In this document: piece after piece, positions 5,857 through 60,100 of the stretch
How positions within the stretch are numbered: the stretch's first letter is position 1
Layout: every line of letters starts with the position of its first letter
Origin: a virus
Taxonomy: Duplodnaviria; Heunggongvirae; Uroviricota; Caudoviricetes
Strand: one strand, 5' to 3'
Length of the DNA: 64,000 bases
IMG/VR virus record: IMGVR_UViG_650377940_000003
Coordinates: 87,323 to 151,322 of that record
The notes under the pieces: model-generated
What the model was told of the DNA's origin: nothing
What the model saw: the letters and a program-made list of their open reading frames with translations, nothing else
Database searches by the model: none
Position numbers and translations under genes: made by a program

Positions 5857-5877
5857 CTATTAGAAAGGGAGATGCAG

Positions 5878-8091
5878 ATGAGAACACTTTTACTGTTCCG
5901 TGGAGCACCCGGTTGCGGGAAGTCCACCTATATTAAAGAGCATAATCTTGAGCAGTACGTATTGAGTGCTGATACACTTCGCCTTATGTGCCAGAGCGCA
6001 CAGGAAACACCTGATGGGCAGATGGAGATTTCTCCGCAGAATGATGATGTTGTATGGGAGATGCTTTTCAAACTGCTTGAGGTGCGGATGAGCCATGGCG
6101 AGTTTACTGTGATTGATGCAACGAATTCCAAGACGGTCGAAATGAATTGTTATAAGAATCTTGCAAAACAGTATCGTTATCGGATGTATGTTATTGATAT
6201 GACGGACCTTCCGATCGAGGAATGCAAACGAAGAAACGCTCAGAGAGAATGGCTAAAGCGAGTTCCTGAAGCGGCTATTGATAAGATGTACGCTCGGTTT
6301 GCTACTCAAAAAGTTCCTTCTGGCGTGACAGTTCTTCCTTCTACTACGGATGTGATGTCCGATTTGAACTACTGCCCGAATGACTTTAACCAGTGGAAAA
6401 AGATACATATCATCGGTGATATTCATGGCTGCTATACCTGCTTGAGTGAATACCTTGGTGAGATGAAGGACGACGAGCTTTATATCTTCGTTGGTGATTA
6501 TCTCGATCGTGGCATCGAAAACGTTGAGGTATTCAAGTTCTTGTGTGATGTTGTAAATAACAACCGCAAGAATGTGATCCTTTTGGAAGGGAACCACGAG
6601 CATTGGCTGAACAAGTGGGGGCATGATAAACCGGTTCAAAGTGAAGAGTTTGCAAACTACACTCGTCCGCAGCTCTTTAAAGCCGGTATTGACAAGAACA
6701 CTGCTCGTAAGATCTATTCCAGAGTCGGCCAGTGTGTCTACTTTGAGTATGATGGTAAGCGGTATTTCGTAAGTCACGGTGGTCTGAGCTATCTTCCTTA
6801 TTTTCTTCCGTTCGTGTCTGCGGATCAGATGATTAAAGGCGTAGGCCGCTATCCTGATATACTGACCGTGGCTGAGTCTTGGGAAAAGTCGATGCCGGAT
6901 AGCTATATTCAGATCTTCGGCCATCGAAATGTACAGGATGTTCCTATTGATATGGGTCATCGGTGCTACAATCTTGAAGGCAAAATCGAGTTTGGTGGAT
7001 ATCTTCGTTGTGTGGAGCTTGAACACGGTCAGCCTATCAAATGCGTAGAAACCAAGAATGATGTATTCCGAAAAGAGGAGCCAAAGACTGAAACTGCCGT
7101 TGAAATGAAAACTGAGTTCGATAACGCAGAACTTGTTAGTAAGATGCGTCAAAGCAAATATGTGTTTGAGAAGCGATTCGGAGATATTTCTTCTTTCAAC
7201 TTCTCTCGTGAAGCATTTTATAAGAAGCACTGGGATGAGGTTTCTACCAAAGCAAGAGGGTTGTTCATTAACACAAAGACGAATAAGATTGTAGCTCGAA
7301 GCTATGATAAGTTCTTTGCGGTTGATGAGCGGAATGAAACGAGAATTGGAAACCTACAGAACACTTTGAAGTTCCCGGTGACTGCATATCTAAAAGAGAA
7401 CGGATTTCTTGGTATCATTTCGTATGATGCAGAACAGGATGGTCTGTTCATTGCAAGTAAATCCACTCCTGATGGGCCTTTTGCAGATATGTTCCGAAAG
7501 ATTCTCATGGATACGACTTCTGATGAAGATCGTAAGAATCTGAAAGAAGTTGCAAAAGAGAATGGCTCCATCATCTTCGAGGTGATTGATCCTGTGAATG
7601 ATGCACATATCATCGAATATAAGAAACCGCACATTGTTTTGCTGGATATTATTGCAAATGATATGAATTTCAGTGTAATGGATTATGATGATTTGAAGCG
7701 TGTAGCCGAGAAGTGTCATCTGCAGATTAAGGAGAAGGTTAAAACCTTTGAGAACTGGAGTGAATTCTATCCTTGGTACGAAGAAGTCATGAACGAGAAC
7801 TATCTGCATCATGGTTTTGAACACGTTGAAGGCTTTGTTTTGCGAGACAGCAATAATTTCATGTTTAAGCTGAAGCTTCCGTATTATAAGCACTGGAAGT
7901 TCTTGCGTGGTGTCATGCAGAGCGTTCAAAAACGTGGCTATTATGAAAATACCGCAAAGTTGTTTACTGCCGAGGATAACCTGTTCTATGGTTGGATGCG
8001 TGAACAACGAGAGAAAGATCAAGAGTCTTTCTGCAAGAAGGGTATTATTCAGCTGCGGAATGAGTTCTACGCAAGTCAGCAGAAGAGCTAA
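5878..8091 (+). CDS. trifunctional polynucleotide kinase-phosphatase-ligase (Pnkp/CthPnkp-like RNA repair enzyme)
   Basis: N-terminal P-loop GAPGCGKST kinase; central calcineurin-type phosphoesterase GDIHGC...GDYLDRG...GNHE; C-terminal nucleotidyltransferase ligase motifs KENG (I), IIFEVID (III), EGFVLRD (IV), FKLKL (V). Confidence 0.7.
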   Translation: MRTLLLFRGAPGCGKSTYIKEHNLEQYVLSADTLRLMCQSAQETPDGQMEISPQNDDVVWEMLFKLLEVRMSHGEFTVIDATNSKTVEMNCYKNLAKQYRYRMYVIDMTDLPIEECKRRNAQREWLKRVPEAAIDKMYARFATQKVPSGVTVLPSTTDVMSDLNYCPNDFNQWKKIHIIGDIHGCYTCLSEYLGEMKDDELYIFVGDYLDRGIENVEVFKFLCDVVNNNRKNVILLEGNHEHWLNKWGHDKPVQSEEFANYTRPQLFKAGIDKNTARKIYSRVGQCVYFEYDGKRYFVSHGGLSYLPYFLPFVSADQMIKGVGRYPDILTVAESWEKSMPDSYIQIFGHRNVQDVPIDMGHRCYNLEGKIEFGGYLRCVELEHGQPIKCVETKNDVFRKEEPKTETAVEMKTEFDNAELVSKMRQSKYVFEKRFGDISSFNFSREAFYKKHWDEVSTKARGLFINTKTNKIVARSYDKFFAVDERNETRIGNLQNTLKFPVTAYLKENGFLGIISYDAEQDGLFIASKSTPDGPFADMFRKILMDTTSDEDRKNLKEVAKENGSIIFEVIDPVNDAHIIEYKKPHIVLLDIIANDMNFSVMDYDDLKRVAEKCHLQIKEKVKTFENWSEFYPWYEEVMNENYLHHGFEHVEGFVLRDSNNFMFKLKLPYYKHWKFLRGVMQSVQKRGYYENTAKLFTAEDNLFYGWMREQREKDQESFCKKGIIQLRNEFYASQQKS

Positions 8092-8208
8092 ATTAAAAAA
8101 TAGACATTTTATCGTGATTTTCGTTAGAATAATTAACGAAGTATAGTGATATTTCTTCCTCCGAAAATGCCCTGCGCGGGGCTGACAGCCGGGAAAGACC
8201 GGCAATAT

Positions 8209-8293
8209 GGGGATATGGTGAAATTGGCAGCCACGCTTGATTCAAACTCAAGTGTCGAAAGACGTATCGGTTCAAATCCGATTATCCCTACCA
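8209..8293 (+). tRNA. tRNA-Leu (anticodon CAA)
   Basis: Hand-folded cloverleaf: acceptor GGGGATA/TATCCCT, anticodon loop TTCAAAC, long variable arm, T-loop TTCAAAT, CCA encoded. Confidence 0.75.
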
Positions 8294-8494
8294 TGAAGAT
8301 TAGTTGTTCTAGCTCGTTCGGGGATTGGCCGTACATTGGCGACCGGAAAGACGTCACACCGGTAAAGGACGTCAAGCCAGACAAGAAGAGAAATAAGGTG
8401 TAAGCCGACTAGCTATCGGATAAATACTCTTCGGTTCGCCAGAAAACTAGAATGTAAAACGAATGGTTGGCTGTTTCTGATCTTCTTTTTATAT

Positions 8495-8577
8495 GCGCCC
8501 GTGGTGGAATCGCAGACACAGGAGACTTAAGATCTTCTGCCAGAGATGGCGTGCGGGTTCAAGTCCCGCCGGGCGCA
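8495..8577 (+). tRNA. tRNA-Leu (anticodon TAA)
   Basis: Acceptor GCGCCCG/CGGGCGC, anticodon loop CTTAAGA, long variable arm, T-loop TTCAAGT. Confidence 0.7.
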
Positions 8578-8584
8578 TTTATAT

Positions 8585-8660
8585 CTGGGCGTAGCGAAGT
8601 TGGTATCGCACCTGTTTTGGGAACAGGGGACCGCAAGTTCAAGTCTTGTCGCTCAGACCA
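8585..8660 (+). tRNA. tRNA-Pro (anticodon TGG)
   Basis: C1:G72 acceptor typical of tRNA-Pro, anticodon loop TTTGGGA, T-loop TTCAAGT, CCA encoded. Confidence 0.7.
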
Positions 8661-8748
8661 GTCCGAAAGGGCATGTAGAATTTTTCATTCACATTATTCC
8701 CAGCTCTCTGGAAACGGAGCAGTGTGACGTAGTAAGCTGGGTATATGA

Positions 8749-8819
8749 TGCGCCATCGCCAAGCGGTAAGGCAGAGGACTTTGACTCCTCCATCACAGGT
8801 TCGACCCCTGTTGGCGCAA
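8749..8819 (+). tRNA. tRNA-Gln (anticodon TTG)
   Basis: U1:A72 acceptor TGCGCCA/TGGCGCA, anticodon loop CTTTGAC, T-loop TTCGACC. Confidence 0.65.
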
Positions 8820-8824
8820 TTTAT

Positions 8825-8906
8825 GCGGATATGGTGGAATGGCAGACACGCCAGATTTAGGATCTGGTGCTTCGGCGTGTGGGTTCGATGCCCACTATCC
8901 GCACCA
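8825..8906 (+). tRNA. tRNA-Leu (anticodon TAG)
   Basis: Acceptor GCGGATA/TATCCGC, anticodon loop ATTTAGG, long variable arm, T-loop TTCGATG, CCA. Confidence 0.75.
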
Positions 8907-9007
8907 CGGTCATGAATCGTTGTTGTTCATGGTTGAACTCCTTTGACCACTATTATTCCCGGCTCGCCAGTGATGGTGCAGTAGTGCTTTGTAAGCTGGG
9001 TTCTCAT

Positions 9008-9082
9008 GCAGCGGTCGTACAACGGCTAGTATATCAGCCTTCCAAGCTGAGGATGAGGTTTCGACTACCTTTCGCTGCTCCA
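9008..9082 (+). tRNA. tRNA-Gly (anticodon TCC)
   Basis: Acceptor GCAGCGG/TCGCTGC, D-stem GTAC/GTAT, anticodon loop CTTCCAA, T-loop TTCGACT, CCA. Confidence 0.6.
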
Positions 9083-9264
9083 ATTTCGTATGGGTAGGGA
9101 TTTTAAGCGGTCAGATCCGGCTGCGCCTGTGCGAGATACCACCCCGAAAGGGGCTAACGAAATTATCCATGTACGTTATTCTCGGTTCGCTCGAAAGAGT
9201 ACAGCGTGCCTTTGCAAGCCGAGCATCCCAGCCTAGTGATGCCAGTTGCTAGGTTGGTTCTTAT

Positions 9265-9340
9265 GCGACTGTAGTTCAATTGGCAGAGCGTCAGATTTCC
9301 AATCTGAATGTTGCGGGATCATACCCCGTCAGTCGCTCCA
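9265..9340 (+). tRNA. tRNA-like, second Gly(TCC)-type with atypical T-loop (ATCATAC)
   Basis: Acceptor GCGACTG/CAGTCGC, D-arm GTTC..GAGC, anticodon loop TTTCCAA, CCA; non-canonical T-loop, so possibly a pseudo-tRNA. Confidence 0.4.
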
Positions 9341-9567
9341 CACGCAGCCCCTTACGCTGCACCGGTTACTCAGAGCCGAAAGAAACCTATATGTTACGAC
9401 ATGGTTGCCAAGAGTGATCATATTGGAACGCGACGTAGCTTGGATAGTGAGAATTAAATTCTGAGGTATACGGCTGGATAGCTTAATGGTAAAAGCGCTC
9501 GGAAACGCCGAGAGATGAGGTTCGATTCCTCCGCTGGCATCGCGCCGACGAAAGTCGGCGTTTGCAT

Positions 9568-9644
9568 GGGATAGTAGCTCAGTTGGTCAGAGCTGGCGGC
9601 TCATAACCGCTTGGTCGCGAGTTCAAATCTTGCCTGTCCCACCA
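9568..9644 (+). tRNA. tRNA-Met/Ile2/fMet type (anticodon CAT)
   Basis: Acceptor GGGATAG/CTGTCCC, D-loop TAGCTCAGTTGGTCAGAGC, anticodon loop CTCATAA, T-loop TTCAAAT, CCA. Confidence 0.75.
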
Positions 9645-9747
9645 GCCCGATAGGGCATACATAAAATCTGCTAGAACTTTTGTTTTATAAGCGAATGAAT
9701 AATATGACGTTAATACGTCTATTATTTTTCGCTTATTTTCGGAGTTT

Positions 9748-9768
9748 TAGCTATGTAACACAGGATAC
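9748..9768 (+). promoter_or_regulatory. phage conserved motif copy (TAGCTATGTAACACAGGATAC)
   Basis: Copy of TAWWYACAGGATAC 12 nt upstream of AAAGGAGG RBS of the methyltransferase gene. Confidence 0.6.
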
Positions 9769-9779
9769 TAAAAGGAGGA

Positions 9780-11256
9780 ATGAAAACTGAAGCATTACGG
9801 AGATATCACACAACTCCATGGATGGCAGATTGAACCGGTTTCCTGTATCACAGGAGGCAGTCCCTGCCAAGATCTGAGTCAAGCCGGTAAACGTGAAGGT
9901 TTGGCTGGTGAACGCTCTGGATTGTTCCTTGAAATGATTCGTGTGATTACAGAAATGAGGGAGGCCACTAATGGAGAATATCCAAAATTCGCAATCTGGG
10001 AAAATGTCAGAGGAGCTTTCAGCTCAAGCAAAGGTGAAGACTTCAGATGTGTGTTGGAAAGATTTGCACGCATTGTCGAGCCAGACGTTTCAATTCCTCG
10101 ACCTTCAGGAAAGAACGGAAAGTGGGCAAAATCTGGAGCGATTTCCGGTAATGGATGGTCTCTTGCATGGAGATTGTTCGACGCTAAATACTGGGGAGTC
10201 GCCCAGCGTCGCCAGAGAATCGCGCTTGTCATGGATTTTGGAGGACAACGTGCCTCAGAAATTCTATTTGAGCGCACGAGCATGTCAGGGGATTCTTGTG
10301 AGAGCATCCCGGCGTGGAAAACCTTTGCCCGAACTCCTGAAGCAAGCGTTGCTGGATATGATCGAATGGTGGAATCCAGGAACTCTGTCACAGGTGGTGC
10401 AGAAAGTGAAGGAACAAGAAGGTCTGGAAGAGAAGGAATTGGACGAGTATTGGAGTCAGACCATCGAGAGACTTCGACTCGATGCACAGAACCTGCAGCC
10501 TACACTCTAAAAATCCGTTCTGGATGTGAAGGTGGCGGTAAAGGCGCTCTTGTTCAAACTGAATTGAGCGCAACGATTTCTACGTTACAAGACCAGACGC
10601 TGATTTGCTTGGCAGAAAATCCCTCCTTACATAATTTAAAACAAAATATTTCGCCGGTGGTGTTTGAGAGCCACAGTCAGGACGCTCGATACACTCAGCA
10701 GAGTGATACAAGTCCGACTTGTACTGCTCAGTGGGGAACTGGTGGCAATAATATGCCACTGGTCATTGAGAAGAAAGCCTTTGCGATGCAACGCATTGGT
10801 GAATACAAGGAAAGTGAACAGGCTAGTACGATGAAATCTCGTGACTACAAGGACGCTACTGACCTGATTACAGAGAAAGAAACGAAGAATCTACGATGGA
10901 TTGTTCGCCGTTTGACTCCTTTGGAGGATGAACGGCTTCAGGGGTTCCCTGATGGATGGACAGATATCGGTGACTGGATTGATGAGAACGAAAAGAAGCA
11001 TAAAACTTCTGACGCAGTTCGTTATAAGGCACTCGGCAATTCAATCGCATTACCGCAATGGTATTGGATTTTTCAGAAGATGAAATCGTATATCGGTGAG
11101 AATCCTACTCTTGGTAGCCTCTTCGATGGGATCGGCGGCTTTCCGCTAGTATTTCAAAGCACATATGGTGAAGGTACTGCCATTTGGGGGTCAGAAATTG
11201 ATAGCTTTTGCGTTGCAGTAACTAAGAAGCATTTTCCAGAAAAGCAAAGAGGATAA
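9780..11256 (+). CDS. C5 cytosine DNA methyltransferase, circularly permuted (motif order III/IV-VI-VIII-TRD-IX-X-I-II); ATG at 9780 is 1 nt out of frame (A4 run 9783-9786)
   Basis: Frame +1 from 9784: KLKHYGDITQL...GGSPCQDLSQAG (IV), ENVRGA (VI), QRRQRIALV (VIII), RRLTPLEDERLQGFPDGW (IX), KALGNSIALP (X), then LFDGIGGF (I) and SEID (II) before stop at 11256; RBS AAAGGAGGA precedes ATG 9780; deleting one A gives M-KLKHYGDITQL. Confidence 0.6.
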
Positions 11257-46985: not shown

Positions 46986-47058
46986 AATCAGAGCTTTGGT
47001 GTGGTATACTTATAGTGTCACATCAAGGCTCTTTATAATAAATGTAAGGAGTCTATTT

Positions 47059-48216
47059 ATGGAAAGACGTAAAGATAGTAAAGGTAAAGTCTTAAAAGAC
47101 GGCGAAAGCCAAAGAAAGGATGGAATATATCAATATCGATGGACTGATAAAACTGGAAAACGTCACACAATTTATGCGAAAGATTTAAAAGTTCTTCGAG
47201 AAAAAGAAAATAATGCTAACAAAATAATTTCTCAAGGGATAGATTTTGAAGGCGGTAAAATAACAACATATCAGTTTCTTATAAGATATTATGAATTTAA
47301 GAAAACATCAATAAAGAAATCGAGTTTGAAGACATATTATACAACGACAAACAAGTTGAAGGATACGTCTATCGGTAATACAAAAATTATTGACGTAAAG
47401 ATTTCAGACGCAAAACAACTGATTATTGATTTGAGCCAGAATGGATTGAAATACAGTACAATAAAAACTATAAAAACACTGATAAAAGCTGCATTTAAAA
47501 TGGCTCAAGAAGATGATTTAATTTTAAAGAATCCGTTTGATTTTCAGCTGAATGAAGTTATAAAAAACGACACTAAAAAAAGAGTCGCATTAACCGAACA
47601 ACAGTATTCTGATTTGCTTGAATTCGTTTTATGTGATCGAGTCTTTCGTAAGTATTATGATGACATCGTATTTTTGTATGAAACTGGAATTCGCGTAAGT
47701 GAATTTTGTGGATTAACACTTTCGGACATTGATTTTGTGAAACATGAAGTTGTAATTGATAAACAACTCATCAAAACCTCAAAAGGAGAACTCTACATCA
47801 CAGATCCAAAATCAAAAGCTGGGTTTCGGACGATTCCATTGAGCGCTGAGGCATATCACGCGATTAAAGCCATTATCAATCGTCGGCCACAAACAAACGA
47901 GATGATGGTCGATGGCTATTGTGGTTTCATCTCAATTCATTCAAATGGAACCCCGAAGACCGCTTGGAACATTGAATATGAGCTAAGAGAAATTGCAAAG
48001 GCGTATAACAGTCTTTACCCAGAGTGCCAATTACCAAATCTCACACCTCACGTTCTTCGACACACTTTTTGTACCAGAAAAGTTAGCAGCGGCATGAACA
48101 TCAAGGCAGTTCAATATCTAATGGGGCATAGCTCAGTACAAATTACACTCGATGTATACACGTCAATCGACGCTGATATGATAAAAACTGAATTCGCAAA
48201 AGTGGCACAGATGTGA
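47059..48216 (+). CDS. int: tyrosine recombinase/integrase (Tn916 Int-like)
   Basis: HVLRHTFCTR (HxxR) and LMGHSSVQITLDVYTS (catalytic Y); RBS TAAGGAG; marks the right prophage end. Confidence 0.85.
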   Translation: MERRKDSKGKVLKDGESQRKDGIYQYRWTDKTGKRHTIYAKDLKVLREKENNANKIISQGIDFEGGKITTYQFLIRYYEFKKTSIKKSSLKTYYTTTNKLKDTSIGNTKIIDVKISDAKQLIIDLSQNGLKYSTIKTIKTLIKAAFKMAQEDDLILKNPFDFQLNEVIKNDTKKRVALTEQQYSDLLEFVLCDRVFRKYYDDIVFLYETGIRVSEFCGLTLSDIDFVKHEVVIDKQLIKTSKGELYITDPKSKAGFRTIPLSAEAYHAIKAIINRRPQTNEMMVDGYCGFISIHSNGTPKTAWNIEYELREIAKAYNSLYPECQLPNLTPHVLRHTFCTRKVSSGMNIKAVQYLMGHSSVQITLDVYTSIDADMIKTEFAKVAQM

Positions 48217-52845: not shown

Positions 52846-54861
52846 TTGGAACAACTGATCGACTTTCACGCACCGGAAGTGCAGGCGGTGCTGGATACAC
52901 TTCTAAAAGACCGCTCCACCGGTAAAAACATCATCTGGGCCACCGACCCGCCGGAGGAACTGCAAACGGTGATGTACGAACCTGTCACGGATAAATCCCA
53001 GATCACCACCCAGCAGCTCGGGCTGACCCACTACGAGGTGGTGCTGCCCCGGATGATGAAGCAGACCGACACCCAGCAGCAGCGCACCCGCAAAAAAGGC
53101 GAGGTGTTCAGCCCCGCATGGGTCTGCAACAAGATGAACAATGCACTGGATGCCGACTGGTTCCGTGGGCTGGGGGCAGGGGAGACCGCCGGGCAGTTCA
53201 CGGTGGAACTGCCCCAAGGCTGGCAGACGGTGGAAACGCCGGTGCGGTTCCCAGCTTGCGGGGGCAGGACCCCGGCATGGGTGCAGTATGTGCAGAGCCG
53301 CCGCTTGGAGGTGACCTGCGGCGAAGCCCCCTTTCTGGCGTCTCGGTACGATGCCGCCACCGGCGAGATGATCCCGGTAGCCCGGCGCATTGGCATTTTG
53401 GACCGCAAGCTGCGTGTGGTAAGCGAGAACGCCGCCACAGAGGACGAGTGGCGCAAATATGCCACCCATGCGGTGCAGTCCACCTACGGCTACGAGTATC
53501 AGGGTGATAACCTTTTGCTGGCGAGGGTCAACCTGCTGCTGACCTATGCAGAGCATCTGCAAGCCCGCTGGCAGCGCAAACCCACAAAAGAAGAGTTACA
53601 GCCTATCGCCAACATCATCAGCTGGAACCTGTGGCAGATGGACGGCTTGCACCTCTCTGTGCCCGGCGGCAAGCCCCAGCCGGAGACAGAACAGCTTGAC
53701 CTCTTTTCCATGTTCGGGGCGGCAGAGCCGCAGCTGCCCACGGTATCCTGTAAAGTGAAAAACTGGCGCAAGGGCAGCCATGGAACCGCCCAGAACTTTG
53801 AAACCATTCAGGAAGGGAGTACCAGCATGAAGTTTGATTATGTCATCGGAAACCCGCCGTATCAGGATGAAACCCTTGGCGATAACAAAGGCTTTGCACC
53901 GCCAGTATATAACAAATTTCTGGATGCGTCTTATGAAATTGCGGATAAGGTGGAAATGATTCACCCTGCACGGTTTTTGTTCAATGCTGGCTCTACGCCA
54001 AAAGCATGGAATGAGAAAATGCTGAGTGACCCGCACTTTAAGGTTTTGCACTATGAAGCTGATGCAAGCTCGATTTTCCCGAATACTGACATTAAAGGAG
54101 GAGTGGTTGTTTCATATAGGGATAGCTGTTCGGATTTTGGCGCAATCGGAGTGTTTACTAAATATGCAAAACTGAATGCGATTCTCCATAAGGTCACAGA
54201 AACGGCTGATTTTATTTCGTTAAGCAATATTGTGGTGACGAGAACAGCATATAGATTGACCGACAAAATGCACGAGGATCATCCAGAAGCAATCGGTCAG
54301 TTGAGCAAGGGTCATGCTTACGATATGGCAACAAATATATTTGACCGATTGCCACAAATATTTTTTGATGCGAAGCCAACAGATGGAAACGATTATATCC
54401 GAATATTAGGACGAACAAACAATGAACGTGCATATAAGTATGTGAGAAGGGATTATGTCAACAAGGTGAAAAACCTTGATAAATTCAAGCTGTTTATTCC
54501 GAAAGCAAATGGAATAGGTGCGTTTGGAGAAGTAATATCGTCACCAATCACGGCAACACCCGGAGTTGGTTCAACTGAAACATTTCTGAGCATTGGTATC
54601 CTAGACTCCGAGTATGAGATGGGTGCAGCATTAAAATACATAAAAACAAAATTTGCACGGGCATTATTAGGTGTTTTGAAAACTACACAAGATATTACAC
54701 CAGACAAATGGAAATACGTTCCCCTTCAAGATTTTACCGCCCATTCCGACATTGATTGGAGCAAGTCGGTGGCGGAAATCGACCAGCAGCTTTACCGCAA
54801 GTATGACCTGACTGCGGACGAGATCGAATTTATCGAGACCCATGTAAAGGAGATGGCATAA
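52846..54861 (+). CDS. gamma-class N6-adenine DNA methyltransferase (Eco57I/TaqI-like) with C-terminal TRD
   Basis: Motif X GEVFSPAWV near N-terminus, motif IV FDYVIGNPPYQ; stop overlaps start of next gene (TAATG). Confidence 0.7.
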   Translation: MEQLIDFHAPEVQAVLDTLLKDRSTGKNIIWATDPPEELQTVMYEPVTDKSQITTQQLGLTHYEVVLPRMMKQTDTQQQRTRKKGEVFSPAWVCNKMNNALDADWFRGLGAGETAGQFTVELPQGWQTVETPVRFPACGGRTPAWVQYVQSRRLEVTCGEAPFLASRYDAATGEMIPVARRIGILDRKLRVVSENAATEDEWRKYATHAVQSTYGYEYQGDNLLLARVNLLLTYAEHLQARWQRKPTKEELQPIANIISWNLWQMDGLHLSVPGGKPQPETEQLDLFSMFGAAEPQLPTVSCKVKNWRKGSHGTAQNFETIQEGSTSMKFDYVIGNPPYQDETLGDNKGFAPPVYNKFLDASYEIADKVEMIHPARFLFNAGSTPKAWNEKMLSDPHFKVLHYEADASSIFPNTDIKGGVVVSYRDSCSDFGAIGVFTKYAKLNAILHKVTETADFISLSNIVVTRTAYRLTDKMHEDHPEAIGQLSKGHAYDMATNIFDRLPQIFFDAKPTDGNDYIRILGRTNNERAYKYVRRDYVNKVKNLDKFKLFIPKANGIGAFGEVISSPITATPGVGSTETFLSIGILDSEYEMGAALKYIKTKFARALLGVLKTTQDITPDKWKYVPLQDFTAHSDIDWSKSVAEIDQQLYRKYDLTADEIEFIETHVKEMA

Positions 54862-57800
54862 TGGCTGGCATAACCCTGCGCACTGCCCGGCAGGTGGTGC
54901 CCATGATCTACGCCTATACCACCCCGGAAATTGCCCGGCACAACGGCTGGACGAAGATCGGCTACACCGAGCAGTCGGTGGACAAACGCCTGAAACAGCA
55001 GACTCACACCGCCGATGTGCTGTTCCATGAGGAGTGGCGGGGCAATGCCGTCTACGATGACGGCAGCGGCGAGGTGTTCACTGACCACGATTTCCACGCC
55101 TACCTCCGCAAGCTGAATGTGGAGAACGACCGCAAAAATGAGTGGTTCCATCTGGATGGACAGCAGTCCCGGCGGTATTTTCAGGATTTCCGCATGAACC
55201 GGGGTAGGGTGCAGCTGGATGCCGCCATCGCCTACACCCTGCGGGAAGAACAGGAAAGGGCTGTCCGCGACACCAAAACCTATTACCAGAGCCACCCCGG
55301 CGGGGAATACCTCTGGAACGCCAAGCCCCGCTTTGGCAAGACCCTCTCCGTCTACGACTTCTGCAAGCAGGTCGATGCACAGACGGTGCTCATCGTCACC
55401 AACCGCCCTGCCATCGCCAACAGCTGGTACAGCGACTATGTGCGCTTTCTGGGCAGGGAGTCCGGCTATCTGTTCGTCAGTCATGTGGATGCCCTTGCCG
55501 GGCAGCCCCATGTGCTGGACGAGCAAGGCTATCTGGATGCCGCCGCACAGGGCGAGGAACTGTATAAGCGCATTGAGTTCGTCAGCTTGCAGGACATGAA
55601 AGGCTCCAAGTATTTCGGCGGCGAGTACGACAAGCTGCGCCACCTGACCGAGCTGAACTGGGATGTGCTGGTCATCGACGAAGCCCACGAGGGCGTGGAC
55701 ACCTACAAGACCGACCTTGCCTTTGACCGCATCCGCCACAAGTTCACGCTGCACCTGTCCGGCACGCCCTTCAAGGCACTGGCGAACGACAAGTTTGCCG
55801 GGGATGCCATCTTCAACTGGACTTACGCCGACGAGCAGGCCGCCAAGCGGAACTGGCAGGGCGCACCGGGGCAGCAGAATCCCTACGCAAACCTCCCTAT
55901 GCTCAACCTCTACACCTACCAGATGTCCGAGATCATCCGGGACGAGATCCGGCAGGGCGTGGAGATCGACGGCGAAACGCAGGAATTTGCCTTTGACCTG
56001 AACGAATTCTTCAAGGTGAAGTCGGGCGGCAGCTTTGAGCACGAAGCCGAGGTAGACCGCTTTCTGGATGCCATGACCACCCAGAACAAATTTCCGTTTT
56101 CCACCCCGGAACTGCGTGCCGAACTGAAGCACACCTTCTGGCTGCTGAACCGGGTGGACAGCGCCAGAGCGCTGGCGAAAAAGCTGCAGGCGCACCCGGT
56201 ATTCCGGGACTACGAGGTGATCCTTGCCGCCGGTGACGGCAAGCTGGACGACACGGACGAGAACCAGAAGAGCTTTGACCGGGTAAAAGCCGCCATCGCC
56301 CACCACGAAAAGACCATCACCCTGTCGGTGGGGCAGCTGACCACCGGTGTCACCATCCCGGAGTGGTCGGCGGTGCTGATGCTCTCCAACCTGAAAAGCC
56401 CGGCACTGTATATGCAGGCAGCGTTCCGTGCCCAGAACCCCTGCCTTTTCCACGAAAACGGCACCTTCCGCCGCAAAGAGAACGCCTATGTGTTCGATTT
56501 TGACCCCGCCCGCACCCTGCTGATCTACGAGCAGTTCGCCAACGATCTTTCACAGGACACCGCCAGCGGCAAGGGCGACACCGAGGAGCGCAAGGCGCAC
56601 ATTCAGAATCTGCTCAACTTCTTCCCGGTCATCGGCGAGGACGAGGAAGGGGAGATGATCCCGCTGGATGCAGAAAAAGTCCTCAGCATCCCCCGGAAGA
56701 TCAAGTCCAAGGAAGTGGTGCGGATGGGCTTCCAGAGCAACTTCCTGTTCCAGAACATTTCCAACGTGTTCAGTGCCCCGCAGGAGGTGCTGGACATTCT
56801 GCAAAACTTCCAGCCCATCAGCGAGGCAAAGGCAAAGCCCATCCAGATCACCCCGGAGACCGGCGCAGACCTCTCCCTGAACGACAAGGGCGAGGTGGAT
56901 TTGGACGAGGGCTACGTCATCGGCAAGGCAGCGGATGTGTTCGGGGAGAAGATCTACGAAAGCACCCCGGCACTGGACACCGCCCTGCAAGACCTGACCG
57001 ATGCCCCGGCTCCTGCCAAAGAAGAGCATCTGGAACCACTGAAAAAGAGCATCACCAAGGAAATCATCACCCCTATGGTGGAACAGGCAAAGCAGGAGTA
57101 TGGTCGGGACCTGAAGCTGTCCGACCAGAAGCGGTTCGAGAGCACCGCCAAAGCCAAGATGGACGTGGCGGTGAACAAGGTGGTGGACAACTACCGCATC
57201 GACCAGAGCCAGCTGGAGACCCAGCGCACCCAGCAGCTGCAAAGCTGCGCCACCGCCCAGCAGCGCCAGCAGGTGAACCGGGAGTTTGACGCAAAGCAGC
57301 AGCAGAGCACCGCCGCCCTGATGGAAAACCTGCAATCCACCATCCAGCAGACGGCGCAGGAAATGCAGCAGACCATCGTGCGCACCGTGGAGACCAACCA
57401 GAAGGAGCAGGAGAAAAAGGGCTACGAGGACACCGTCCGTGACCATCTCCGGGGCTTTTCCCGCACCATCCCGTCCTTCCTCATGGCCTACGGCGACGAG
57501 ACCGTGACACTGGCGAATTTTGACCGGATCATCCCGGACAAGGTCTTTCAGGAGGTCACCAGCATCACGCTGGAGCAGTTCCGTTTTTTGCGGGACGGCG
57601 GGCCGTACATCAACCAGACCACTGGACAGGAGGAGCATTTTGCAGGCCACCTGTTCGACCCGGTGGTGTTTGACGATTCGGTGAAGGAGTTTTTGAACCT
57701 GAAGGTCAAACTGGCGGATTACTTTGACGAGAGCCGCACCGAGGATATCTTCGATTACATCCCGCCCCAGAAAACCAACCAGATCTTTACCCCCAAGTGG

Positions 57801-58169
57801 GTGGTGAAAAAGATGGTGGACCTGCTGGAGCAGGAAAACCCCGGCTGCTTCGATGACCCCGGCAAGACCTTCCTGGACCCCTACATGAAGTCCGGTCTGT
57901 ACATTACGGAAATCGTCAAGCGCCTTTACCGCAGCGAGAAGATGCGGCAGGCTTTCCCGGACGATAACGCCCGGCTGGAACATATCTTTGCCAAGCAGGT
58001 CTATGGGCTTGCCCCGACAGAGATCATTTACCGCATTGCCATCAGCTACATTCTGGGTTTTGCAAAGGATCACGGCATCACCGCCCACCATATCCGTCAG
58101 GCGGATACGCTGGAATTTGCCAAGGCGGGCACCATGGAAAGGGAACTGGATAAGATTTTCAGAGACTGA
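54861..58169 (+). CDS. GIY-YIG-like nuclease + SF2 (DEAH) helicase fusion with Q-rich linker and C-terminal MTase-N-lobe-like segment
   Basis: N-terminal MIYAYT...KIGYT (GIY-YIG-like); helicase motifs NAKPRFGKT (I), VIDEAHEG (II), LSGTPF (III), TTGVTIPE and QAAFRAQN (V/VI); C-terminal IFTPKWVVKKMVDLL...FLDPYMKSG resembling MTase motifs X/I. Confidence 0.6.
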   Translation: MAGITLRTARQVVPMIYAYTTPEIARHNGWTKIGYTEQSVDKRLKQQTHTADVLFHEEWRGNAVYDDGSGEVFTDHDFHAYLRKLNVENDRKNEWFHLDGQQSRRYFQDFRMNRGRVQLDAAIAYTLREEQERAVRDTKTYYQSHPGGEYLWNAKPRFGKTLSVYDFCKQVDAQTVLIVTNRPAIANSWYSDYVRFLGRESGYLFVSHVDALAGQPHVLDEQGYLDAAAQGEELYKRIEFVSLQDMKGSKYFGGEYDKLRHLTELNWDVLVIDEAHEGVDTYKTDLAFDRIRHKFTLHLSGTPFKALANDKFAGDAIFNWTYADEQAAKRNWQGAPGQQNPYANLPMLNLYTYQMSEIIRDEIRQGVEIDGETQEFAFDLNEFFKVKSGGSFEHEAEVDRFLDAMTTQNKFPFSTPELRAELKHTFWLLNRVDSARALAKKLQAHPVFRDYEVILAAGDGKLDDTDENQKSFDRVKAAIAHHEKTITLSVGQLTTGVTIPEWSAVLMLSNLKSPALYMQAAFRAQNPCLFHENGTFRRKENAYVFDFDPARTLLIYEQFANDLSQDTASGKGDTEERKAHIQNLLNFFPVIGEDEEGEMIPLDAEKVLSIPRKIKSKEVVRMGFQSNFLFQNISNVFSAPQEVLDILQNFQPISEAKAKPIQITPETGADLSLNDKGEVDLDEGYVIGKAADVFGEKIYESTPALDTALQDLTDAPAPAKEEHLEPLKKSITKEIITPMVEQAKQEYGRDLKLSDQKRFESTAKAKMDVAVNKVVDNYRIDQSQLETQRTQQLQSCATAQQRQQVNREFDAKQQQSTAALMENLQSTIQQTAQEMQQTIVRTVETNQKEQEKKGYEDTVRDHLRGFSRTIPSFLMAYGDETVTLANFDRIIPDKVFQEVTSITLEQFRFLRDGGPYINQTTGQEEHFAGHLFDPVVFDDSVKEFLNLKVKLADYFDESRTEDIFDYIPPQKTNQIFTPKWVVKKMVDLLEQENPGCFDDPGKTFLDPYMKSGLYITEIVKRLYRSEKMRQAFPDDNARLEHIFAKQVYGLAPTEIIYRIAISYILGFAKDHGITAHHIRQADTLEFAKAGTMERELDKIFRD

Positions 58170-58192
58170 CAAATAGAATACAGCATAAAAAC

Positions 58193-58233
58193 AAAGGCGG
58201 CTGTCTGCATGGGTGCAGATGGCCGCCTTTTTG
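58193..58233. terminator. bidirectional terminator between convergent genes
   Basis: GGCGGC...GCCGCC hairpin then TTTTTG. Confidence 0.6.
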
Positions 58234-58312
58234 TGCTATGCCTGTTACAAAAATGAAAGCTGTTGAACGTCCGGCAAATCGTTTTCAGGTGTGGAATGAT
58301 TGGCTTTTTTCA

Positions 58313-60100
58313 TCATGTTTCCAATGGTTTTTTGATGGTGGACTTGGTTTCGATCCCTTGCTTGCGCATCTTTGTATCATTGGTGTTTTTTTGAACCGAG
58401 CAGATACTGGATTTCAAGATACGATTGTAGAAGTCCATTGCCATGATATTCGTCCGCTCATTTATATCAATCGTGGACTTTCCAGCATATCGCTGAGCGA
58501 TATTCCGTGCGGTATAAAACATTGATGTTTCATAAATTTTAAGTTTGCTGGCGAAATCTTTTCCATTGCACCGTGAATTTAGGCTGTCTTCAAGAGGAAT
58601 CAAATTCCCAATAATGCCATTTTCAGGGGAATTTGTATCATCCAAGATATGTTCGATCGTGAAGGCAGCACACTGCTTACTGGCACATTTGTATCGTTCA
58701 AGGACTTCCAAAACAACTTGCACACGTTCCTTGTTTCGGTCATCGTCGTAATACCCAGCGTGATGTGACCACCCTAAATTGGAGAATGCTTTGAGAAAGA
58801 CTTCTTTGCTGGGAAGTTTATTCTTTAACTCTGAGATAAAGCATTCCAATGCGGAGTCGGAGTAGTGGTTTTCGAGAATACTGGAATTTTTGTAAATCGC
58901 ATTTGTTATTTTGTTCGAATTTTCTTGTCCAATAATGGTATAGCAGATGAAAAAATCATAGAGAAACAGAAGGGTCTCCTCGTACTTCTCTTGGCTGAGG
59001 TGACCGAGTTCATATTGATGAATTAGACTTAAAAGGATAGGACGAATTTGTTCTTGCCGATGCTTTTTGAAAAAAGCATACACTTTAAATTCAACATTCG
59101 AACAGTTTGCAGATTCCTCAGATTGAGAAGGAGAAAGAAGGCGGTTGTAGTAGATGGACTTCTGATAAATATCGTCAAGAAGCGGAACAGTTGGAATGCC
59201 TTTGTTGGAATCACGAATGAGTTTATAATCGCTGATACCTTCCTGAACAGAGGTTCTATATTTGTGGGTTGCATAATGTTTTACAAAGCGTTCGATGTTG
59301 TTACCTAAAAGCGATTCGATCTCCGACCAAGTGGTTTTCGCAGTGTCGACATCTCCATCGGGTCTAATGCCTCTTAGAATAAAGTTCTTTAATAGTTCAT
59401 GCCCTTCCAATGCTGAGCCGCGAGCGTTTAAAATCTCAAAAATCGTGTACGCATCTTCCTCGGAAGATGCGGTAATATCAACATATAGCAGATTGTCCGT
59501 TATGGCGGTTCGTAAATTGAGTAGGACTTGAATTGGGGAAAGAGTAGATTCTTCAATATGTTTATAGATGCTGTTTATGAAAAACACAAAGGCAGCTGCG
59601 AGATTCTTGTTGTTTTGAGAAAACTGCTTTACAAGTGCTGCGGTTTCAAAACGCTTTGCCATATTTGGAGAAATTGAAAAGAGTCCAGTAATAATTCGCT
59701 CTAGTGCAATATATTGCTCAGACTTGATGACCATGGCTTCCTGATTTAAATCGTCACGAGTGAACAAATACTGCTTTGTTCCTCGAAATTCGTCGTCAAA
59801 TTCATAGCAATGAAGGCAAAAGGCTACACTTGCAAGAAAAATTGTTAGGGAAATAATTCGTTGTTGACCATCTACAATTGTAAAATATGAGATGCCGTTT
59901 TTGCGGTCGTTCTCTTTGTAAAGAACGATACTTCCGATGAAGTGGGTTGCTTCTTTTCCGGTAGCAACGAGCAAGACATCATCAAATAACTCTTGCCAGT
60001 TTCTTTTGTTCCATACATACTGTCGCTGGTTTCGGGGCGTTCCATAACAACGCTTGGTGAAAAGGTCGTAGACGTGTTTGTCATCTGCTTCAAAACTCAA
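58313..60100 (-). CDS. GmrSD-like Type IV (modification-dependent) restriction endonuclease, DUF262 + DUF1524
   Basis: N-terminal ParB-like DGQQR motif (TIVDGQQRIISL); C-terminal HNH-like EHILD...N...PLEDSLNSRCNG; low GC (about 40%) inside high-GC island. Confidence 0.7.
   Translation of the reverse strand: MSFEADDKHVYDLFTKRCYGTPRNQRQYVWNKRNWQELFDDVLLVATGKEATHFIGSIVLYKENDRKNGISYFTIVDGQQRIISLTIFLASVAFCLHCYEFDDEFRGTKQYLFTRDDLNQEAMVIKSEQYIALERIITGLFSISPNMAKRFETAALVKQFSQNNKNLAAAFVFFINSIYKHIEESTLSPIQVLLNLRTAITDNLLYVDITASSEEDAYTIFEILNARGSALEGHELLKNFILRGIRPDGDVDTAKTTWSEIESLLGNNIERFVKHYATHKYRTSVQEGISDYKLIRDSNKGIPTVPLLDDIYQKSIYYNRLLSPSQSEESANCSNVEFKVYAFFKKHRQEQIRPILLSLIHQYELGHLSQEKYEETLLFLYDFFICYTIIGQENSNKITNAIYKNSSILENHYSDSALECFISELKNKLPSKEVFLKAFSNLGWSHHAGYYDDDRNKERVQVVLEVLERYKCASKQCAAFTIEHILDDTNSPENGIIGNLIPLEDSLNSRCNGKDFASKLKIYETSMFYTARNIAQRYAGKSTIDINERTNIMAMDFYNRILKSSICSVQKNTNDTKMRKQGIETKSTIKKPLET

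Follow-up and report, generated by a model that had tools for sequence, protein, structure and literature searches.

Clusters of transfer RNA (tRNA) genes have been known from phages for 50 years. Here, we present a computational analysis of one such array, lying between positions 8200 and 9700 of a 64,000-nucleotide (nt) stretch of viral DNA (hereafter the window), which covers positions 87,323 to 151,322 of IMG/VR virus record IMGVR_UViG_650377940_000003 (Caudoviricetes). The phage is temperate and its host is Faecalibacterium prausnitzii, a Gram-positive gut anaerobe and abundant human commensal. The products of the array are eight tRNAs and two tRNA-like RNAs, and the spacers between the genes resolve into RNA modules whose conservation, accompanied by compensatory changes, extends over more than 100 related contigs of gut phages and goes far beyond chance. 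Foremost among these modules is a leader pseudoknot, a real, repeated and covariation-supported RNA that is previously undescribed and not in Rfam. The array is thereby an ordinary kind of phage tRNA cluster whose cis-elements are novel.

The tRNA genes were called with ARAGORN and with the Rfam tRNA model (RF00005, gathering score 29), the Rfam searches covering region 8050-9800 at E values up to 10. ARAGORN called eight tRNAs on the plus strand, all of which score about 52-66 bits with the Rfam model and thus lie above its gathering score:

8209-8293, plus strand: tRNA-Leu(CAA), called by ARAGORN, Rfam 53.1 bits, CCA encoded
8494-8578, plus strand: tRNA-Leu(UAA), called by ARAGORN, Rfam 52 bits, CCA not encoded, 6 nt to the next tRNA
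8585-8660, plus strand: tRNA-Pro(UGG), called by ARAGORN, Rfam 62.7 bits, CCA encoded
8749-8819, plus strand: tRNA-Gln(UUG), called by ARAGORN, Rfam 60.4 bits, CCA not encoded, 5 nt to the next tRNA
8825-8906, plus strand: tRNA-Leu(UAG), called by ARAGORN, Rfam 56.6 bits, CCA encoded
9008-9082, plus strand: tRNA-Gly(UCC)-1, called by ARAGORN, Rfam 53.1 bits, CCA encoded
9265-9340, plus strand: tRNA-Gly(UCC)-2, called by ARAGORN, Rfam 61 bits, T-loop AUCAUAC with a swapped A54/U58 pair
9568-9644, plus strand: tRNA with anticodon CAT, called by ARAGORN, most likely tRNA-Ile2

The two tRNAs without an encoded CCA, Leu(UAA) and Gln, are the two with another tRNA 5-6 nt downstream. A preliminary description of the window had listed the same anticodons (three Leu, Pro, Gln, two Gly-TCC and CAT), and both programs recovered all eight tRNAs. 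Running them over the array, as that description had proposed, confirmed the tRNAs and yielded no further RNA family, Rfam giving nothing else there but noise on tRNAs. The intron-containing tRNA that it had considered was not found with ARAGORN in intron mode and with relaxed thresholds.

The main structured element of the spacers, which the preliminary description had overlooked, is a 50-nt direct repeat that is present three times in the window and whose structure was read by comparison with relatives. The three copies are listed below with their scores against R1, a covariance model of the nested part of the pseudoknot:

8689-8741, plus strand: pseudoknot copy 1, 71.9 bits, ending 7 nt before tRNA-Gln; its parts are P0a 8689-8694, UAUU 8695-8698, P1a 8699-8705, P2 hairpin 8706-8719, CA 8720-8721, P0b 8722-8727, junction J 8728-8734 and P1b 8735-8741
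8948-9000, plus strand: pseudoknot copy 2, 76.1 bits, ending 7 nt before tRNA-Gly(UCC)-1
9171-9223, plus strand: pseudoknot copy 3, 52.4 bits, E = 4e-11, absent from the training set

The 53-nt layout runs from P0a (6 nt, ending in U) through UAUU, P1a (7 nt), the P2 hairpin and CA to P0b (6 nt), a 7-nt junction of the form Y-N-N-N-G-Y-A and finally P1b (7 nt), and P2 itself has a C-G closing pair, 4-8 base pairs (bp) and a variable loop, which is often of the GNRA type. Since P0 crosses P1, the fold is an H-type pseudoknot. In an ungapped alignment of 46 distinct 53-nt copies (18 pairs, 828 cells), standard pairs fill 99.3% of the cells, compared with 30-43% when the partners are slid by 1-3 columns, and 13 of the 18 pairs show two-sided changes. 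Covariation scored 0.55, the slid controls giving no more than 0.09, and the observed values were reached by 0 of 500 shuffles. Read on the opposite strand, the many G·U pairs would turn into C·A, which assigns the pseudoknot to the RNA strand of the tRNAs.

A degenerate pattern in which only the junction bases were fixed and the P0a strand was left out matched 360 times in the phage loci, with P0 perfect (6/6) in 334 matches and P1 perfect (7/7) in 341. The same pattern matched at least 120 times in bacterial genomes, mostly by chance and with a mode of 2-3 of the 6 P0 pairs; among the bacterial matches listed, two pass all helices, both from Faecalibacterium metagenome-assembled genomes. In the 64-kb window, R1 finds exactly the three copies, the next best match scoring 11 bits. 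Across the collected loci, the distance to the following tRNA is 6-8 nt in 292 of 349 copies. The tRNA downstream is mostly Gly(UCC) (178) or Gln(UUG) (127), and it would usually be the first of a processing unit. Every class of pseudoknot is preceded by a pyrimidine-rich tract of 10-15 nt that is almost free of G, and the base after P1b is U in 95% of the unique copies. The tracts before the leaders (8935-8947, 8150-8165 and their equivalents) contain CUCCUUU or UUCCUCC and resemble the 3' end of 16S ribosomal RNA, i.e., the anti-Shine-Dalgarno sequence. Rfam 15 returned zero matches at E up to 10 when searched with 8683-8748 alone, and across the whole searched region it returned, beyond tRNA, only sub-threshold noise overlapping the called tRNAs.

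In a second lineage of related phages (lineage 2; contigs of 142-151 kb) the array is rearranged, and the pseudoknot still stands 7-8 nt before Gly(UCC). Here it also precedes a tRNA that is seen by Rfam only. This gene (L085, 2626-2694) scores 44.9 bits with the Rfam tRNA model, is passed over by ARAGORN and lies 8 nt after the pseudoknot; its anticodon arm is irregular, and on one reading of it, with CUA in the loop, it is possibly an amber suppressor.

The strand order of the pseudoknot is that of a minimal ribozyme of the hepatitis delta virus (HDV)-like kind (P0 corresponding to P1, P1 to P2, and P2 to P3), and the element could accordingly be a self-cleaving ribozyme of HDV topology that cuts at the 5' edge of P0 and separates the units of the transcript, a reading that we consider doubtful. 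The resulting ends, a 2',3'-cyclic phosphate and a 5'-OH, would on this equally doubtful extension be processed by the kinase-phosphatase-ligase encoded next to the array (see below). The unpaired UAUU and CA and a junction G and A are invariant, the first junction position is C in at least 90% of the aligned copies, and P0 starts 2 nt after CCA in one rare 68-nt spacer class, all of which such a ribozyme would accommodate. However, P0 opens with U, C, G or A in different classes, this first base forming ordinary pairs rather than G·U, the junction C is replaced by U in several copies, and the P2 loops vary (GAAA, GUGA, GUAA, AAAA(n), GCAG and others) with neither L3/P1.1 nor conserved complementarity to the junction. 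The element furthermore lies 5' of its tRNA, with a usual distance of 27-47 nt, and at most 89 nt, to the CCA upstream. None of the Rfam ribozyme models gives a match at E up to 10, and the repair enzyme was not found near lineage-2 arrays.

A close known parallel is provided by the theta ribozymes, which are likewise small pseudoknotted RNAs from the spacers of gut-phage tRNAs and which share the nested-pseudoknot strand order (PMC10879173). They adjoin the tRNAs in phages that show an enrichment of RNA ligase genes (PMC10879173). Genes for RNA repair or ligation occur both in theta ribozyme genomes and in the phages studied here. Theta ribozymes cut within 5 nt of the 3' end of tRNAs that mostly lack CCA, their cleavage site is marked by G1, they feature a catalytic C and L3/P1.1, and their hosts are mostly Bacteroidota (PMC10879173). 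In contrast, the leader described here lies 5' of CCA-encoding tRNAs, has neither G1 nor L3/P1.1, carries the invariant UAUU and CA and resides in phages with a Faecalibacterium host. Membership in the theta or HDV-like ribozymes was rejected, as G1, L3/P1.1 and the position relative to the tRNA all disagree. Hammerhead, twister, pistol and hatchet ribozymes gave neither a match to their consensus cores nor a match to their Rfam models.

The conserved junction nucleotides and the compact H-type fold are also reminiscent of small riboswitch aptamers, and the pseudoknot might be a binding site or sensor that regulates tRNA output, with a phage or host protein, RNase P or a small ligand as its partner. 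Contact with RNase P could result from its constant distance to the tRNA. We nevertheless regard this as improbable: neither a terminator nor a ribosome-binding site lies downstream as an expression platform, one operon holds three copies, there is no similarity to Rfam riboswitches, and no partner gene is consistently linked. A further comparison is offered by the exonuclease-resistant RNAs (xrRNAs) of flaviviruses, in which a 5' strand is followed by P1a, a hairpin, the partner of the 5' strand and P1b, so that the 5' strand pairs into a three-way junction. The leader pseudoknot has the matching strand order; unlike xrRNA, its P0 is 6 bp long with a 4-nt linker, and there is no P3 hairpin and no sequence similarity. 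The Rfam xrRNA models matched neither the array region nor the pseudoknot alone.

The second type of module is a minihelix attached to the 3' end of a tRNA:

9083-9141, plus strand: tRNA-like minihelix, 59 nt, fold -29.7 kcal/mol, z = -2.0, its first base directly after the CCA of tRNA-Gly-1

The element consists of a 7-bp acceptor-like stem (AUUUCGU paired with GCGAGAU), extendable to 12-13 bp in the minimum free energy fold, followed by A and CCA, and it has no T-loop and no anticodon arm. About 25 variants were collected, which always abut the CCA of the preceding tRNA (Gly or Leu-tag) and include a compensatory change of C5-G to U5-A in the stem; the minihelix was found in locus L001 and in lineage 2 as well. 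We read the region, on sequence grounds, as an acceptor-stem minihelix in preference to an HDV-like fold, for which P1 and P2 can be drawn, but no GG is available for P1.1 and L001 is devoid of the J4/2 C. The classical minimal substrate of RNase P is a 12-bp helix carrying NCCA at its 3' side, and the 3' end of MALAT1 is generated by RNase P cutting a downstream tRNA-like structure, mascRNA. The likeness to mascRNA lies in a tRNA-like helix with an ACCA end standing exactly at a 3' end that has to be produced, with cleavage being inferred in the present case. It differs from mascRNA in being a 59-nt minihelix without T-loop or anticodon arm, and the weak Rfam match to mascRNA falls on tRNA-Leu(UAA), not on the minihelix.

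The remaining parts of the spacers also comprise structured elements, many of them at fixed positions relative to the tRNAs:

8170-8203, plus strand: leader hairpins CCC-UGCGC-GGG and GCCGG-GAAAGA-CCGGC, the second ending 5 nt before tRNA position +1
8379-8486, plus strand: second structured leader type, before tRNA-Leu(UAA), with a long-range helix of GAAGAG (8385-8390) and CUCUUC (8427-8432)
8661-8672, plus strand: GNRA hairpin GUCC-GAAA-GGGC, directly after the CCA of tRNA-Pro (repeat family D2; fold)
9142-9153, plus strand: GNRA hairpin CCCC-GAAA-GGGG, directly after the ACCA of the minihelix (repeat D2; fold and variants)
9228-9257, plus strand: 13-bp hairpin between pseudoknot copy 3 and tRNA-Gly-2, fold z = -3.6 (9165-9264), ending 7 nt before the tRNA
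9341-9472, plus strand: conserved stretch in the leader position of the tRNA-like gene, including hairpin GCAGC-CCCUUAC-GCUGC (9344-9360)
9473-9539, plus strand: tRNA-like gene, marginal Rfam tRNA score of 30.0 bits against the gathering score of 29, not called by ARAGORN
9542-9561, plus strand: GNRA hairpin GCGCCGAC-GAAA-GUCGGCG (fold), conserved with variants, ending about 6 nt before the last tRNA
9645-9656, plus strand: hairpin GCCC-GAUA-GGGC, directly after the last CCA (repeat D2)

The combination of ACCA and hairpin is thus a repeat with three copies in the array. The leader hairpins at 8170-8203 are conserved; they have a compensatory variant, GCUCAUUGUGAGC, and L001 replaces CCGG/CCGG by CUCG/CGAG, while the second leader type occurs in three diverged versions in related loci, for which RNAalifold gives three covarying pairs in the long-range helix. 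The hairpin at 9228-9257 is inserted in the spacer class of copy 3 and was flagged as terminator-like with a weak T-run. In the tRNA-like gene, the D-arm and T-arm are canonical and the anticodon stem has 5 bp, with a 5-nt loop (AAACG) and an acceptor stem in which 5 of 7 positions pair. The T-stem covaries (G50-C64 to A50-U64), the 5-nt anticodon loop is constant in relatives, and the slot is a genuine tRNA slot, as ARAGORN calls a tRNA there in one sister locus. In the window, ARAGORN left the gene uncalled even with relaxed thresholds or in intron mode, and because of this, the 5-nt loop and the two broken acceptor pairs, it was filed as tRNA-like and non-decoding.

The hairpins that the preliminary description had quoted, namely GGTTCGATTCC, CTCGG-AAACG-CCGAG and GCGCCGAC-GAAA-GTCGGCG, are all found at 9500-9560, and the first two belong to the tRNA-like gene. 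Its broader suggestion that the spacers hold tRNA-like pieces or non-coding RNA was upheld by the minihelix, the tRNA-like gene and the other structured RNAs, which are conserved with compensatory changes. Structure within 9341-9472 was discarded as a candidate, the fold being no better than that of shuffled sequences (z = -0.8) and the rare substitutions breaking predicted pairs. An open reading frame (ORF) check of the array found only short ORFs in the spacers, all overlapping tRNAs, and for that reason these were not credible as coding genes.

Two of the tRNAs call for further comment. The label Met(CAT), under which the last tRNA had originally been described, was revised: the gene at 9568-9644 is most likely of the Ile2 type, predicted to decode AUA after lysidine modification, and not an elongator Met tRNA. 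This assignment follows from three observations. Among 5,426 Escherichia coli genomes, the best match comes from a prophage, whose tRNA bears a CAT anticodon and is labelled tRNA-Ile by PGAP (59/77 positions identical, with the same anticodon stem-loop), a sister phage carries tRNA-Ile(UAU) in the cat slot that is identical at 60/77 positions (78%), and the known tRNA-Ile of phage T4 is likewise named Met(cat) by ARAGORN. In some sister loci, the cat tRNA of the last slot has a long variable arm, with a total length of 92 nt, which is unusual for Met or Ile tRNAs. The T-loop of tRNA-Gly-2 (9313-9319), AUCAUAC, had correctly been noted as non-canonical; in it, the two bases of the 54/58 pair have traded places. 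Related arrays (L002-L195) comprise 211 unique tRNAs, U54/A58 occurring in 172 of them and A54/U58 in 26, the latter spread across Gly-UCC, Pro-UGG, Leu-UAG and Leu-UAA, and mixed combinations occur in 0 of the 211. A literature search for A54/U58 T-loops gave nothing.

Adjoining the array is a gene that had also escaped the preliminary description:

5872-8091, plus strand: gene for a 739-amino-acid protein with kinase, metallophosphoesterase and Rnl1/Trl1-type RNA ligase parts, ending 117 nt before the first tRNA

Pfam matches (AAA_33 2.6e-22, Metallophos 2.5e-15, RNA_lig_T4_1 4.2e-41) identify a P-loop kinase, a calcineurin-like phosphoesterase and a T4 Rnl1-type RNA ligase domain. The sequence matches in PDB are the fungal Trl1 tRNA ligase (9qw7, 3e-18), T4 Rnl1 (2c5u, 5tt6), the kinase domain of Clostridium thermocellum Pnkp (4gp7) and lambda phosphatase (1g5b). 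From its sequence, the product is a predicted heal-and-seal tRNA repair enzyme with the full set of activities for mending broken tRNA. A literature search for tRNA ligases of Faecalibacterium prophages gave nothing.

With the repair enzyme as a probe, relatives were found to be encoded by 114 viral contigs, 80 of which were compared. These originate from gut metagenomes, share 88-100% protein identity, and the longest contigs reach about 125-139 kb. The array follows the repair gene in 78 of 81 sources (the 80 loci and the window). In this lineage 1, the order of anticodons is Leu-caa, Leu-taa, Pro-tgg, Gln-ttg, Leu-tag, a Gly-tcc slot and a last slot, where the Gly-tcc slot is filled once or twice, or else by an odd "His-atg"-like gene, and the last slot holds cat, Ile-tat or, in one locus, a "Tyr-ata" call. 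The tRNA bodies vary while the anticodons stay, with 3-8 families per slot that are less than 80% identical to each other; the median pairwise tRNA identity per slot is 66-78%, compared with a mean of 88% (minimum 78%) over the final 600 nt of the flanking gene. As 21 family combinations were found among the 78 arrays, the array is a mosaic.

Seven sister arrays (L014, L017, L025, L026, L042, L043 and L062) carry spacer insertions of 765-1817 nt, which encode an HNH endonuclease (PF01844), a TnpB/Cas12f-like protein (PF07282) and ORFs of no known kind. These HNH and TnpB-like insertions probably drive the mosaic exchange of tRNA cassettes. One cassette, consisting of Gly-2 and its 227-nt spacer (9265-9567), is near-invariant across loci, with the flanking gene 88% identical on average, and is present in only part of the family, which suggests that it has spread recently. 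The "His(atg)" call replaces the first Gly in 17 lineage-1 loci (e.g., L083 and L014) and follows 29 pseudoknot copies across all collected loci. In this gene, position 33 is G rather than U, the first base is U1 and no CCA is encoded; it is probably another non-canonical tRNA-like gene. The linkage of the healing and sealing activities to the array is conserved in lineage 1 and not in lineage 2. One lineage-2 locus (L152, 9500-11701) has genes for a ThiF-family protein and a reverse transcriptase, which lie a few kb downstream from its tRNA array.

The array region may form a self-contained tRNA operon, as suggested by consensus matches at its two ends:

8101-8130, plus strand: promoter-like site TAGACA-18-TAGAAT, the sole sigma-70-type match in 7900-10000 (10/12 positions, consensus match only)
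9706-9730, plus strand: terminator-like hairpin and T-run at the operon end (consensus match only)

Downstream of the array, a C5 DNA methylase and a replication and recombination module are encoded. The GC content is about 40% up to about 48 kb of the window and 52-58% beyond, an integrase gene (46996-48216) is followed by the host groEL, and the groEL protein is identical to that of F. prausnitzii (CBL02540.1). For these reasons the window represents the right part of a prophage and adjoining host DNA, and the prophage, host and GC contrast that had been assumed at the outset are borne out. A defence island occupies positions 52846-60100 of the host flank, beside the prophage end, and its genes encode an Eco57I-like methylase, a 1102-amino-acid ResIII helicase with a T5orf172/MUG113 domain and a GmrSD type IV endonuclease.

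The preliminary description had regarded the array as a classic case of codon compensation, and we therefore compared codon counts of 28 phage ORFs with those of the seven host-side ORFs of the window and groEL, the host sample being small (3875 codons). The GC content at third codon positions (GC3) is 0.43 in the phage ORFs, 0.65 in the host-side ORFs and 0.76 in groEL, so that the host is indeed the GC-richer partner. The served codons (UUA, UUG, CUA, CCA, CAA, GGA and AUA) are rare in the host as had been claimed, occurring 0-1 times each in groEL, whereas the claim that they are common in the phage did not stand, with frequencies of 4.7-14.7 per 1000 and 0.9-2.0 fold relative to the host-side genes. 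The unserved A-ending codons AGA, CGA, ACA and GUA show an equal or higher enrichment in the phage, the largest phage-host differences concern U-ending codons, and the phage itself seldom uses AUA and CUA. Of its Leu codons, 39% are covered by the three Leu tRNAs. The compensation pattern was thus sustained in part, as regards the GC-richer host and the scarcity of the served codons in groEL.

An account by codon compensation alone would have the tRNAs do nothing but decode A/U-ending codons, taken to be frequent in the AT-rich phage and rare in its host, and would treat the spacers as functionless decaying duplicates and pseudo-tRNAs. The GC3 contrast with groEL, the near absence of the served codons from that gene and the share of Leu codons covered all agree with it. 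Yet the served codons are no more enriched than unserved A-ending ones, and two of them are rare in the phage; the adjacent repair enzyme and the replacement of tRNA bodies with kept anticodons are left unexplained; and the spacers are under structural selection, which means that they are not decaying. We judge this account possible, while clearly on the unlikely side.

Instead, we hold with moderate confidence that the locus is a tRNA operon with modular cis-acting spacer RNAs, in which the tRNAs and the repair enzyme sustain phage translation. The phage tRNAs would supply decoders of A/G-ending codons that are hardly used by the host, and together with the repair enzyme they could keep translation running if host tRNAs were scarce or cut by tRNA-targeting defences. 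In the transcript, an endonuclease may separate the units at the single-stranded pyrimidine tract, and the pseudoknot would shield the downstream precursor from 5'-to-3' decay and leave a single-stranded leader of 5-8 nt for RNase P. An RNase P cut at the 5' end of the minihelix would directly yield the mature CCA 3' end of tRNA-Gly, and RNase P, RNase Z and CCA addition would complete the ends of the CCA-less tRNAs, Leu(UAA) and Gln. RNase P is able to separate polycistronic tRNAs in E. coli (PMC2190699), and it cleaves H-type pseudoknots in loop 1 only if these have a 3' RCCA (PMC12710915), a motif absent from the leader pseudoknot. Further, phage tRNAs and the homing endonucleases of tRNA clusters act as anti-defence loci against tRNA-cleaving systems (PMC10264068, PMC11555353, PMC13096335), and the adjacent repair enzyme fits a counter-defence reading of phage tRNAs.

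Several observations weigh against this reading of the operon. A tblastn search found no homolog of the repair enzyme within the 8-13 kb examined around lineage-2 arrays, and since these arrays carry the modules without the enzyme nearby, the RNA modules and the repair enzyme are not obligately coupled. No tRNA-targeting (anticodon) nuclease was found in 16 kb of host flank. Codon compensation is plausible, but codon usage alone does not explain the particular tRNA set. Pseudoknot copy 3 is slightly degenerate, P2 being closed by C·A and P1 containing a G·U. The constant spacing between pseudoknot and tRNA could in part go back to a common cassette origin. Region 9341-9472 is near-invariant in 23 variants, yet has no supported structure, ORF or Rfam family. 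Moreover, the functions of the spacer modules and every processing step proposed above are inferred from sequence.

There is a further, more ambitious reading, to which we give a small chance only, in which the pseudoknot is a new RNA class, either a ribozyme sharing no more than the HDV topology or a bacterial counterpart of the exonuclease-resistant RNAs. Together with an RNase P-recruiting minihelix, it might, with similarly low probability, make the maturation of phage tRNAs largely independent of the 3'-end processing enzymes of the host. The A54/U58 T-loops and the turnover of cassettes would then conceivably be an evasion of host factors that recognise tRNA shape, which we likewise deem unlikely.

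The operon can be compared with the tRNA region of phage T4, which has eight tRNAs and in which five anticodons are identical to those of the array (UUG, UAA, UCC, UGG and the CAU of Ile). In T4, the homing endonuclease SegB resides inside the cluster, as HNH genes do inside the sister-phage arrays, and the non-tRNA rnaD starts 1 nt after tRNA-Arg, as the minihelix starts 0 nt after the CCA of Gly. T4 also holds a kinase/phosphatase (Pnkp) and an Rnl1 ligase for tRNA repair, activities that are present here too; unlike in T4, they are fused in one 739-amino-acid protein encoded directly upstream of the array, and the phosphatase is lambda/CthPnkp-like. Further differences from T4 are the Gram-positive anaerobic host, the temperate lifestyle and the pseudoknot leader, which is not known from T4 (the T4 sequence was not searched with R1). 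The small stable RNAs species 1 and 2 of T4 (rnaC and rnaD) are, to our knowledge, still without assigned function. They carry no functional annotation in the T4 record, a literature search for them gave nothing, and no sequence similarity between them and the modules of the array is established.

Against this background, the spacers of a gut-phage tRNA operon now stand as discrete, covariation-supported RNA modules whose coordinates are exact and for which nature provides many compensatory variants. Should the pseudoknot be catalytic or block nucleases, it would constitute a new RNA class, and if the minihelix recruits RNase P, it would be the bacterial-virus version of the mascRNA 3'-end trick. 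The fused repair enzyme and the mosaic, homing-endonuclease-ridden array fit the emerging view of phage tRNA loci as counter-defence islands.

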